A stretch of 64,000 nucleotides of DNA. Source: an uncultured Mycoplasmatota bacterium (GTDB lineage Bacteria > Bacillota_I > Bacilli_A > RF39 > UBA660). Made by a program: the position numbers and the translations under genes. Numbering within the stretch: position 1 is the stretch's first letter; every line of letters begins with the position of its first letter. The stretch is taken from positions 13,054 to 77,053 of the forward strand of contig URFW01000003.1 in assembly GCA_900547225.1 (NCBI GenBank). Direction: 5' to 3'. The notes under the pieces were generated by a model. That model was not told where the DNA came from. It was given only the letters and a program-made list of their open reading frames with translations, and made no database searches. Positions 53,527 to 56,588 of this stretch are shown here, piece after piece.

Positions 53527-53565
53527 AATAAATTTTCAAAACATATAAATTACAATTTATCGTTG

Positions 53566-53595
53566 AGATCAACTTTAATAGTTGATCTTTTTTAC
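53566..53595 (+). terminator. rho-independent terminator after vanZ-like gene (AGATCAACT-ttaat-AGTTGATCT plus T-run)
   Basis: Read directly from the sequence. Confidence 0.6.
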
Positions 53596-53856
53596 TTTTT
53601 ATAAATAGGATGATTTCATATATAAATATTAGTATATGTGAAAAAGCAGGATAAGAAACTTGTGCAACTATACTAAACTTTTCCTTATTTCATAAGGGTT
53701 TAGTGTTACACAATACTGATTTCGTACTTACGAAATTCAACCTACGAGGTAGGTTGATATTAGGTTGATATGAAAGTTAAACCTTATAAAATAAAGCATT
53801 TAATATTTATTAAATCATCCTACTTGATTATTTTTTGTAAAATTTATAGGATGATT

Positions 53857-53890
53857 AAAGACTAACATAATTTTGGCTATGTTAGTCTTT
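53857..53890. other. perfect 13-bp inverted repeat (AAAGACTAACATA-8 nt-TATGTTAGTCTTT) overlapping the stop codon of the serine recombinase
   Basis: Read directly from the sequence. It is a candidate bidirectional terminator or a recombination-site remnant. Confidence 0.55.
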
Positions 53891-55712
53891 CTTTTTCTAA
53901 TTTATCAAATAGTTTCTTATAAATTTCTTTCCCATCTTTATCTTTAAACATAGATAAGTCTAAAGTAATAACGCCTAATTTAAAATCATCTTTTTTTCTC
54001 TTATCTCCAATACCAATTAATCTAATTATTTTTTCAACATCGTTATTTTGAGTATAATTAAATCTATTTTCTTTTTCATCAATTTCACTTATATAATAGT
54101 TTAATTTATAATCTCCAACATATTTTTCTAATCTTTTAAAATAATTTTCTGCTTCTTTCATAGTTTTAAGTTCATGATTTAGTTTTAGTGGTATTCCATA
54201 TTCATCTTCATACATATACACATTACAAGGTGTATTAAATTTATAGTGATTATATATCATATCCTCTAAATAATTTTTTCTAAATTCAATATTAGATATT
54301 TCAAATTTATTGTTTTTCTTTTCAATAGTTATATTATCAATATATTTACCAATTATTTTTTGTTTATCTTCTTTTGATTTATTAGACCAATTATTTAAAA
54401 CATCTGGGTTAGTATAAAATTCTATTTCTTGTATATCTTGTATAATTAATAAATCATTAAGGGTGAAACTTAAATCCTCATATTGTTTTTGTCCTTTTTG
54501 CCTTTTTTCTAAATCAGATTTTTGATATTCGATATGTTTTATTTCTTTATCAAAATCTTCTAGTTTTACAACACCTTTAATATAAGCTGTTTTAATTCTA
54601 TCTAGTTGTTTATCTAAATCTTTAATTTCTTTTTTATAATCTTCTGTTTTATCTTCTAATTTTGATTTAATAAATGGCGTATAGTAATTATTAATAAGGT
54701 CATCTTGTTTAGCAAGTTCTAACATAAATGCTTTTAATTCTTTTTCAATATCTATTTCATTGAAATAAGTTTTACAAGTATTACATTTATAGTAATAGTA
54801 TTTTTTACCATTAGTTTTTGTAGTAGCATGACCACCTAGAAAATTACCACATTTAGAACATTTTAACTTATTAGTAAATAAATAAGTTGCTGTTCTTTCA
54901 TAATGTCTAGCATTTCTTAATTTTTGATACTGACAACTTTCCCATTTTTCTTTTGAAACAATAGGTTCAATAACATTTTCATAATAAGTTGGGTGTTTTG
55001 TTCTTTTGCCATTTACATAATCGCCTTTATAAAGTTCATTAGATAATATCTTTTGTATTGTAGAATCGTACCAATTAGTTTTTCCTAATACTTTTTCTTT
55101 ATTATAGATATTAGCAATTGCTTGATGACTTTTACCTTCTAAATATAAATCAAATATTCTAACTATTATATCTTTAGTTAGTGGATCAGGTACTAACTTT
55201 TTGTTTTCTCTTTTAAAACCTAATCCAGTTCTATTAGGAATATGACCGTTTTTAATTGCACCTGCCATACCAAATTTAGTTCTTTCAGAACACTTTTCAA
55301 TTTCATTTTGAGAAACACTAGTCATTATTCTCATAACCATACGACCATTGGATGTAGTAGTGTTTGATTCATCAGCCATACAATCTATATCACATTCATA
55401 GTCATTAACAAATTTCATTAATTTTTCAATGTCATATACAGAACGAGTTAATCTGTCTAGTTTTAAAGCAACAATAACATTAATATTACCTTTTTTAACA
55501 TCTTCGATCATTTCTTGATAAGCAGGTCTTTTGTCATTTTTAGCACTTATTCCTGCATCTTGATACACTTTATAAATATTATATCTTTTAAATTTACAAA
55601 ACTCTTTTAATCTTTCTTCTTGTTCTCTCAAACTAAATCCTTCTCTTGCTTGGTCAAAAGTAGAAACTCTAATATATATACCAGCACTTTTGATTTTTTC
55701 ATCCATATTCAT
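53877..55712 (-). CDS. large serine recombinase (resolvase/invertase N-terminal catalytic domain plus recombinase and zinc-ribbon domains)
   Basis: N-terminus [12 protein letters not shown] with the catalytic Ser, then LDRLTRS. Central recombinase domain and C-terminal Cys-rich CSKCGN...CNTC, followed by a coiled-coil. Start set to ATG 55712 after AAAGGAG. About 612 aa. Confidence 0.9.
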
Positions 55713-55751
55713 ATCAACTCCTTTTCTAATAAAAAAAGAAGCTAAAAACAC

Positions 55752-55763
55752 TAGTTTAAACTA
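55752..55763. other. 12-bp perfect palindrome TAGTTTAAACTA immediately upstream of the recombinase start
   Basis: Read directly from the sequence. It could be an operator or an att core. Confidence 0.3.
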
Positions 55764-55904
55764 ATATCTTTAACTTCCTATAAAATTCAATATAATATTT
55801 TGTTTGCTTTTTCATGTAGTACCTCACTTTCTAATAAAAGACTAGATACTGCTTCCTTTATTGGTTTTATATTGTATCATTTATTTTTAGTTTGTCAAAC
55901 CATA

Positions 55905-56174
55905 TTAGTTCATTTTTAAGTATTGTTCTAAATCTTTAAACTTAATTTTGTTATTATAACCGTTTATAAAGACATTTTCACTATCTTCAAATATTAAGTA
56001 GTCATTGCCTTTAACTTTCAAAATATGGGGTTTTACATAGGCTATATTAGTATTTTTAAGATTTATAATATATCCATTAGTAAAGGAATATTCCACATAA
56101 GCAAACTTACATATCATTTCAATCTTTCTTTTTAATTCTTCACTTATTACAAGTTTTTTAGTTTCTATTGTCAT
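55905..56174 (-). CDS. hypothetical small protein between recombinase and tRNAs
   Basis: 89-aa ORF with no motif. Confidence 0.4.
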   Translation of the reverse strand: MTIETKKLVISEELKRKIEMICKFAYVEYSFTNGYIINLKNTNIAYVKPHILKVKGNDYLIFEDSENVFINGYNNKIKFKDLEQYLKMN

Positions 56175-56270
56175 AACTCATCACTTTCCTTTCTTAAATA
56201 ACAAAAAAACTAACTATTTCTAGTTAGCATTTATTACTTAAACTCGAAAAGTTCGAGTTTCCTATCAATC

Positions 56271-56345
56271 TGGAGCAAGTGAGGAGAATCGAACTCCCGT
56301 CTCAGCCTTGGCAAGGCCGCGTACTAGCCGTTGTACTACACCTGC
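56271..56345 (-). tRNA. tRNA-Gly (anticodon GCC)
   Basis: Reverse-complement folds as acceptor GCAGGTG/CACTTGC, D-arm GTAC-AACGGCTA-GTAC, anticodon stem CGGCC/GGCTG with loop TTGCCAA, T-arm GGGAG-TTCGATT-CTCCT, and 3' TCCA. Confidence 0.85.
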
Positions 56346-56353
56346 AAATAAAT

Positions 56354-56428
56354 TGGAGGGGCCAGCCGGATTTGAACCGGCGATCGTGGAGTTGCAGTCC
56401 AATGCCTTACCAGCTTGGCTATAGCCCC
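56354..56428 (-). tRNA. tRNA-Cys (anticodon GCA)
   Basis: Reverse-complement: acceptor GGGGCTA/TGGCCCC, anticodon loop CTGCAAC, T-arm GCCGG-TTCAAAT-CCGGC, and 3' TCCA. Confidence 0.8.
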
Positions 56429-56588
56429 ATTTCTTTTCGTGCAACCAAATTATAACATATAATACCAGTAAATAGCAATAGTAATTTTTTATATTTTATG
56501 CAAAAAAATATAACAAGTTGCTATTTTTTCTAATAAAAAATTCATATTTTGTAAATAATATTACTAATAATGAGCCTATATAATCAAT

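Follow-up and report, generated by a model that had tools for sequence, protein, structure and literature searches.

The window analysed here is a stretch of 64,000 nucleotides from an uncultured Mycoplasmatota bacterium (contig URFW01000003.1, positions 13,054 to 77,053), and its positions 51672-56270 very probably constitute a 4,599-bp integrative element that is intact, has spread recently and has a large serine recombinase as its engine, the explanation that best accounts for the evidence taken together. The element is inserted behind a tRNA-Gly gene, and the genes of its integration module are read on the minus strand. About 200 further loci from genome, metagenome and viral collections, scanned for relatives or for the 23-mer of the left end of the element, were used for comparison; loci and contigs are referred to below by L numbers where they have to be told apart.

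The boundaries of the element follow from a comparison with strains lacking the recombinase, as the sequence-only reading of this DNA had proposed. Seven contigs share the backbone of the window without the element (L093, L094, L095, L097, L100, L101 and L102); they were retrieved through a look-up of the neighbouring bPH protein. These are clean empty sites, and in all seven the base corresponding to 51677 of the window is joined straight to 56271 by a single TGGAGC, exact to the base. Read in the sense of the tRNA, this hexamer is GCTCCA, the 3' end of tRNA-Gly, which occurs once in the empty sites and twice in the window. The proximal copy forms the last six bases (56271-56276) of tRNA-Gly(GCC) (56271-56345, minus strand), and the distal copy, the core of the right attachment site (attR), lies at 51672-51677 on the same strand and is duplicated relative to the empty sites. 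The insertion leaves the tRNA-Gly gene intact; the element sits between the encoded CCA and the native terminator of the tRNA operon, a terminator-like stretch of host DNA (51635-51662, minus strand). This terminator directly follows the tRNA CCA in the empty sites and was moved 4.6 kb away from the tRNA by the insertion. The neighbouring tRNA-Cys(GCA) (56354-56428, minus strand), which lies outside the element, also ends in CTCCA, yet it is unoccupied here. Since clean empty sites exist, the locus is not syntenic in all relatives but polymorphic for the presence of the element.

The same boundaries appear when copies in different surroundings are compared. A BLAST comparison of the window with ten long contigs revealed a shared block, 51671-56275, which is more than 99% identical in other flanks, while the genes on either side of it differ among these contigs. 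On the tRNA side every copy starts with CTCCA followed by GATTGATAGGAAACTCGAAC, which is conserved at the left end across the family, and on the far side every copy ends with CCAGAACCATAAGGGCTCCA; the right end AAGGGCTCCA is the same in L001-L010, L016 and L077. The element consists of a constant 2.7-kb integration module, variable cargo and a constant right end of about 170 bp. The module comprises the left end, a gene for an 89-amino-acid protein, the gene of the 611-amino-acid recombinase and a structured non-coding region. The left end, or P' arm (56177-56270, minus strand), begins with GATTGATAGGAAACTCGAACTTTTCGAGTTT and is identical in all copies, and the conserved right-end segment (51678-51846, minus strand), whose P arm GGTTGTTTTACCAGAACCATAAGGG adjoins the core, is retained in all cargo variants. 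Breakpoints recur at the module end (53539-53547) and at the right-end segment, which extends from 51672 to about 51846 (51824-51846), and overlaps of 15-18 bp flank extra cargo blocks in other copies (breakpoints 53539-53559 and 51824-51846), a pattern that suggests modular exchange of the cargo.

The degree of conservation indicates that the element has recently spread between hosts. Full-length copies of the 2,711-nt integration module (53560-56270) occur in 26 loci with 96.4-100% identity and a median of 99.8%. In L003, the module differs from that of the window at 3 of 2,711 positions, while the adjoining tRNA-Gly(GCC) is identical at only 59 of 75. Copies with a left end that is 99-100% identical were found in at least 13 different upstream contexts, and these differing flanks exclude a purely vertical inheritance of the copies. 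The exact recombinase sequence is indexed in 2181 blocks of an assembly collection, mostly from human-gut metagenomes, and is 100% identical in at least eight species-representative genomes; the carriers are uncultured gut metagenome-assembled genomes labelled Bacilli, Tenericutes or Mollicutes, plus Clostridium sp. CAG:417. The DNA of the element has no match in PLSDB or INPHARED, where carriage on plasmids or phages was looked for.

The recombinase is encoded by an open reading frame (ORF) at 53877-55751 on the minus strand, with a likely ATG start at 55712 preceded by AAAGGAG, so that the protein of 611 residues would span 53877-55712. Its domain content assigns it to the large serine recombinases: Pfam reports Resolvase (PF00239, 119 bits), Recombinase (PF07508, 68 bits) and Zn_ribbon_recom (PF13408), the last with 25.8 bits just over the cut-off of 25.3, and the CxxC...CxxC pattern of the zinc ribbon is visible in the sequence. 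The catalytic serine is Ser17 within the motif YIRVST, in line with the earlier statement that the enzyme is intact. A charged, heptad-like stretch at about residues 330-420 is a candidate coiled-coil, read from the sequence alone. The named NCBIfam families were not reached (XisF, the excisase of the fdxN element, with 140.6 bits against a cut-off of 375, CcrB with 118 against 900), and Pfam gave no match to DUF4368. The best phage relatives, integrases such as that of phi105, are less than 30% identical and cover residues 1-480 only, and the N-terminal domain of TnpX is a weak match. No other recombinase is present in the element. The exact insertion, the shared core of 5-6 bp and the matching of the core at both ends are consistent with conservative recombination using a 2-bp overlap.

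The survey covered 135 distinct upstream contexts, and the base at position 73 of the tRNA, the discriminator, separates the targets into two classes. Junctions of the type CTCCA-GATTG adjoin only tRNA-Gly(GCC) (14 contexts), tRNA-Gly(UCC) (13) and tRNA-Cys (2). Junctions of the type CACCA-GATTG adjoin tRNA-Leu (21), tRNA-Thr (14), tRNA-Arg (6), tRNA-Phe, tRNA-Ala and tRNA-Lys, and in addition 16 distinct genes of transfer-messenger RNA (tmRNA). In bacteria, the tRNAs with a U73 discriminator are those for Gly and Cys, and the other occupied tRNAs carry A73; both states are visible in the sequences of the occupied tRNAs. The CCA end is encoded by all 156 distinct tRNA and tmRNA genes in the loci, and insertion right after it, and with it the pairing of core and target, holds for recombinases down to about 60% identity. 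Two kinds of tRNA were never occupied, those with G73 (0/5) and tRNA-Met (0/14). In the loci checked (L027, L043 and L044) tRNA-Met is followed by tRNA-Leu, and it is therefore not the last gene of its operon. Contexts other than full tRNAs are right ends of other elements in tandem arrays, or tRNA 3' fragments of the kind left at the end of a prophage; in L210, a distance of 2.4 kb separates a tRNA-Leu from the junction. Candidate "non-tRNA" target sites were rejected, as they proved to be such right ends within arrays and are thus no evidence of relaxed specificity. The tRNA 3' fragments beside L223-L227 were considered as a minimal bacterial attachment site (attB) and were likewise set aside, because a later insertion of an island into the same tRNA gene looks alike.

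The two ends of an element agree with each other as well as with the target. Among 23 distinct elements with both ends paired, which belong to a family with sizes of 3.1-7.6 kb, 22 carry the same 5-bp core at both ends. Two reciprocal swaps show that this matching is more than shared ancestry. The recombinase of L211 differs from that of the window by 9 substitutions (98% identity) and the P arms of the two elements share one type, while both cores of the L211 element are CACCA and it is located at a tmRNA gene. Conversely, the recombinase of L103 is 97% identical to those of L028 and L038, which have CACCA cores and lie at tRNA-Leu and tRNA-Ala, while the L103 element has CTCCA cores and is located at tRNA-Gly(GCC). 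Serine recombinases need a matching 2-bp overlap in both partners. As the target class follows a single base of the element's own attachment site (attP) among near-identical recombinases, the simplest reading places base 73 in this overlap, which suggests that the discriminator lies within the crossover dinucleotide. The right junction of L029 reads GGGC-AC-AAAATT and is without the CA of CCA, suggesting that positions 75-76 need not match. A possible third core, CGCCA, which would correspond to G73, was seen at decayed or array junctions only. TACCA junctions (L133, L139 and L193) were rejected for placing the crossover, since their right ends were not found or the units are without a recombinase.

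Taken together, these observations raise the possibility, to which we would give slightly less than even weight as a whole, that the recombinase belongs to a clade of large serine recombinases dedicated to the universal 3' terminus of tRNA and tmRNA genes. The DNA of the acceptor stem and T-arm together with N73-CCA would then serve as a generic attB half-site, a point mutation at position 73 would retarget the element from the tRNAs for Gly and Cys to those for Leu, Thr and Arg and to tmRNA, and islands without a recombinase but with the same cores would have been moved in trans, building arrays anchored at a tRNA. In the mechanism we propose, the recombinase would join a circular attP, CCATAAGGG-CTCCA-GATTGATAGG, whose junction centre is CCATAAGGGCTCCAGATTGATAGG, to the tRNA gene's 3' end as attB. 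The cut would fall at a 2-bp overlap inside C72-N73-C74-C75-A76, most likely one that includes the discriminator base (N73-C74, here TC), and position 73 of the element core would decide the tRNA class, with T leading to Gly and Cys and A to Leu, Thr, Arg, Phe, Ala, Lys and tmRNA. Once the element has integrated, the left-end hairpins would replace the terminator of the tRNA, the second of them ending the tRNA transcript inside the element.

A number of points weigh against this interpretation. The exception among the 23 paired elements at face value breaks the rule, as its left core is CACCA while its right core is CGCCA (L163, with the same locus in L138); we read this as a mutation in a decayed array unit. 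The crossover can be placed only within the five shared bases; the L029 junction and the left junction of L193, which lies on a tRNA with T72, hint at N73-C74, as single cases without an empty-site control. The sequence downstream of the tRNA is loosely conserved, partly due to neighbouring islands, and no clear dyad symmetry is visible in attP. Regarding movement, no Mob or relaxase ORF is present in 51672-56270, and the element encodes no transfer function. An excised circle was not detected either: the exact 28-nt attP junction is unmatched in the metagenome contig collection, and short contigs bearing the recombinase show neither a terminal or circular overlap nor attP. A degenerate attP pattern had its sole match, among the loci fetched for that search, in a tandem junction in L035.

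Several alternatives have to be weighed against a serine-recombinase element whose overlap includes base 73. The element could be real while the recombinase protein recognises base 73 in both sites, and this recognition rather than the overlap enforces the matching, with the cut at another position such as one within CCA. Base reading close to the centre of the site does occur in serine integrases, and the placement of the crossover within five bases shared by attP and attB leaves room for such a cut. However, recombinases that are 97-98% identical use opposite cores in both directions, which is hard to achieve via altered protein specificity, and the right junction of L029 is without the CA of CCA, so that we consider this version unlikely. 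A different question is whether the element is intact. The sequence-only reading had offered a decayed integrative element that used the tRNA locus; the integration and the use of the tRNA stand, whereas the decay does not, as both ends are defined to the base and the module is 96-100% identical in 26 loci. In its stronger form, in which the recombinase is the stranded survivor of a larger prophage or conjugative element, this explanation is very improbable. It would account for the absence of phage, replication and conjugation genes from the element and its surroundings, and for the finding of no circular form. The lack of phage and conjugation genes nearby, already stated earlier, agrees with precomputed Pfam calls on the identical contig L010, which extends about 10 kb to each side of the recombinase gene, and on the related empty-site contigs. 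Yet a remnant would not be expected to have precise ends and an empty site restored to the base, and the 4.6-kb unit, or the 2.7-kb module with other cargo, recurs with 96-100% identity across many flanks and species. Moreover, since all family members measure 3.1-7.6 kb, the small size is the normal state.

Two further origins had been put forward for the recombinase, and both have become extremely improbable. One is a developmental recombinase of the SpoIVCA or skin type, whose excision of the element in sporulating cells would restore a gene. Genes for spore germination (GerA, GerAC and a spore permease) are present in the host, and large serine recombinases do carry out skin-type excision in other spore formers. 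But no coding gene is interrupted or restored here: the insertion lies between the CCA end of the tRNA and the native terminator, the strains without the element contain no extra restored gene or ORF, and the insertion sites of the family comprise many different tRNA and tmRNA genes. The other is a domesticated DNA invertase, which would invert a segment between the local palindromes, a notion to which the several inverted repeats around the gene gave rise. It is contradicted by the large C-terminal integrase domains of the protein, by element ends that are direct rather than inverted copies of GCTCCA, by the presence/absence polymorphism of the element, and by the same internal orientation of all copies, with an inverted segment in none of the 26 full-length ones. 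The inverted repeats themselves are short-loop hairpins, two of them followed by T-runs, as described below.

The palindromes, inverted repeats and hairpin listed in the sequence-only reading are all present where it had placed them, but they are not attachment sites; they proved to be terminator-like hairpins and parts of a structured intergenic region. In total, four terminator-like hairpins were found, compared with 0.8 +/- 0.9 in shuffled sequences. A terminator-hairpin search located one at 53565-53589 on the plus strand, which closes the cargo operon. The 13-bp-stem hairpin at 53857-53890 (plus strand) extends over the recombinase stop codon (TAG, 53877-53879) and would be terminator-like toward plus-strand transcripts heading into the recombinase gene. 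The palindrome TAGTTTAAACTA at 55752-55763 is the tip of a hairpin of 20 pairs with a T-run (55736-55779, minus strand), just upstream of the ribosome-binding site of the recombinase. This leader hairpin recurs across 21 diverse relatives in the family, where 10 of 16 pairs carry compensatory changes, and is probably a conserved terminator or attenuator that keeps recombinase expression low. Upstream of it, a strong promoter-like TTGACA-16-TACAAT with an extended TG (55871-55898, minus strand) was identified from an 11/12 consensus match alone. At 56240-56260, the hairpin located beyond tRNA-Gly corresponds to ACTCGAACTTTTCGAGT, a conserved part of the element's left end, and a second left-end hairpin at 56210-56227 is followed by a T-run at 56203-56209, as read by eye on the tRNA-sense strand.

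The structured non-coding region of the integration module (53600-53876) holds the two remaining palindromes, TTTCGTA-ct-TACGAAA at 53720-53735 and CAACCTAC-gag-GTAGGTTG at 53738-53756. For palindromes of 7-8 bp it has to be taken into account that short inverted repeats are common in DNA of 25% G+C, with 297 pairs in 3.3 kb. The intergenic stretch of about 280 nt (53600-53880) as a whole gave an RNA-fold z-score of -4.8 against shuffled sequences. Irrespective of the cargo, the region stays attached to the recombinase gene on its 3' side in all cases, and the breakpoints lie at 53539-53547. It is conserved in close copies, partially so in L041 (71%; a 110-nt stretch), and otherwise shows no detectable similarity. 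A search of 51200-56700 with Rfam returned the two tRNAs only and left the region unmatched; it may represent a small RNA, or else a site acting in cis in transfer or replication.

The second gene of the module encodes the conserved 89-amino-acid protein (55905-56174, minus strand) and always lies between the left end and the recombinase gene. The protein is conserved in 142 loci down to 35% identity, and its homologues also precede other serine recombinases in arrays. They form 813 clusters, none of them named. No family match was obtained from Pfam or NCBIfam, and a confident structure model yielded no convincing structural relative. By its position, the protein is an obvious candidate for a directionality (excision) factor or regulator.

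The cargo of the window's copy consists of two genes on the plus strand, a serine-type D-Ala-D-Ala carboxypeptidase resembling VanY-D (51937-52890; Pfam Peptidase_S11, 69.8 bits) and a VanZ-like membrane protein (52906-53526; Pfam VanZ, 87.9 bits). The recombinase gene had been described as wedged between a vanZ-like module and the tRNA pair. The positions are right, but both genes are absent from the empty sites and are therefore cargo inside the element, not neighbours flanking it. The pair meets the general Pfam families only, as the named NCBIfam variants were not reached (vanY_of_D with 101 bits against a cut-off of 625, vanZ-F with 104 against 375), and no vanHAX genes are present. Elsewhere, the cargo comprises sets with helix-turn-helix, DUF2651, DUF5301 or DUF1648 proteins.

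The site occupied at tRNA-Gly in the window is an insertion hot spot, as a comparison with the same site in L099, L098 and L096 (8973-9347) indicates. L099 contains a 4.87-kb island without a recombinase (9295-14164) between the same CTCCA repeats, having TTGAGGAATTTGTTCGGAAAATCC at its left end and GTTGTGTAATCATTCAACTATGG before CTCCA at its right end, and L098 another unit at about 9530-11110 with the left end GATTGATACCAAACTCGAAC. Ends of this second type also flank the window's element in arrays elsewhere. Islands of this kind, lacking a recombinase, may have moved in trans. In L004 (3929-21836) and L002 (5030-15856), two or three different serine-recombinase elements are lined up in tandem behind a single tRNA gene. 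The order in L004 is tRNA-Cys, a 612-residue recombinase with TnpV and a NikA-like protein, the window's element, and a 640-residue recombinase with Mob_Pre; each recombinase in the two arrays is preceded by a homologue of the 89-amino-acid protein. Mini-units of about 200 bp to 1.7 kb that consist of a left and a right end only occur in L138 (about 8802-9044, minus orientation), L163 and L035 (12124-13840), one of them with a CGCCA core, and resemble elements that decayed or lost their interior and stayed behind in arrays. In L226 from IMG/VR (227-9127), a tRNA-Cys 3' fragment comes after the late genes of a prophage (tail fibre, minor tail, endolysin) and precedes a related unit with a 96-residue homologue of the small protein and an ORF resembling a transcriptional regulator, without a recombinase. 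Carriage by a phage was considered for this locus and rejected, since the unit lies at the prophage end beside the tail and lysin genes and not among phage genes.

The use of tRNA genes as integration sites is regarded as characteristic of tyrosine integrases, and targeting of tRNA and tmRNA ends is unusual for the serine recombinase class. In the open-access literature searched, almost no serine integrases at tRNA genes are on record. The TIGER study located 14 of 297 serine-integrase islands at tRNA or tmRNA genes, called this previously unreported and wanted experimental proof (PMC7192596). A review of mobilisable elements puts the sites of serine recombinases inside genes (PMC5704250), and a serine-recombinase catalogue from 2022 never mentions tRNA in its main text (PMC10083194). 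The nearest precedent is provided by the ssrA islands of Dehalococcoides, which share with the present element and its family a serine recombinase gene beside attL, a tmRNA target, and tandem arrays that include units without an integrase. Their recombinase DsiB is CcrB-like, and they have ssrA as the single target, a 20-bp direct repeat and an inferred insertion in the T-loop (PMC3146451). Their integration module comprises six genes with a second small recombinase, DsiA (PMC3146451). In contrast, the present element has an identity of 5-6 bp at the extreme 3' end, many tRNA species as targets, and a two-gene module with one recombinase.

With the integrases of phiC31, Bxb1, A118 and phi105 the recombinase shares the set of Resolvase, Recombinase and zinc ribbon domains, and with serine-integrase phages and elements in general the element shares a single recombinase gene next to one end, an identity of attP and attB that is limited to very few bases, and a precise insertion consistent with a conservative mechanism. 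However, the known members of that group have one site, usually inside a protein gene, whereas the present family hits many tRNA and tmRNA 3' ends without disrupting them, and the element contains no phage genes and spans only 4.6 kb. The clostridial transposons Tn4451/Tn4453 (TnpX) and Tn5397 (TndX) are likewise small Firmicute elements with one large serine recombinase and several target sites, and related elements with TnpV and NikA-like proteins are located in the same arrays as the present element. This group moves via a circular intermediate, as the present element would. Unlike these transposons, the element has neither DUF4368 nor a mobilisation gene, its core is C(T/A)CCA as opposed to a GA dinucleotide, and its targets are set by the ends of tRNA genes, theirs by resemblance to their own element ends. 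The tyrosine-integrase islands catalogued by Islander and TIGER resemble it in the insertion at tRNA and tmRNA 3' ends, the preserved gene, the hot spots and the tandem accumulation, but the present element contains no tyrosine recombinase and its repeat is 5-6 bp instead of a displaced fragment of the tRNA gene. Staphylococcal cassette chromosome (SCC) elements, with CcrA, CcrB or CcrC and rlmH as the target, differ in that the present target is a tRNA gene and the cut-off for CcrB is not reached.

The family is widespread in gut bacteria and supplies well over 100 independent insertions, exact empty sites and natural core swaps, and thus addresses a gap in the knowledge of integrases. If the rule holds, it would offer a serine integrase with a natural landing site in any bacterium that encodes CCA in its tRNA genes, with a target class switchable by one base, which could help to engineer uncultured or intractable Firmicutes. 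In addition, the element is a very common, previously unremarked carrier of VanY- and VanZ-like cell-wall-modifying genes in gut bacteria with small genomes.

The chromosomal neighbours of the element are ordinary: QueH, a phosphoribosyl pyrophosphate (PRPP) synthetase, the bPH domain protein, a nucleoside hydrolase, a Cu/Zn superoxide dismutase and a GerA-type operon. Two small helix-turn-helix ORFs beside the tRNA pair (56653-56907 and 56986-57207), the second with a transposase-like HTH_28/HTH_23 fold, look like parts of an element, but they are present in the empty-site contigs and thus belong to the backbone. The native terminator with its A-rich tract (51572-51678 of the window) recurs several times with 75-94% identity in L003, L007 and L008, and these recurrences may represent similar ends of tRNA operons or old element scars. 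The PRPP synthetase paralogue at 48615-49721 is truncated, split in two or mostly deleted in L096, L097, L098, L100 and L102; it seems to be decaying in the population, while the backbone is otherwise near-identical.

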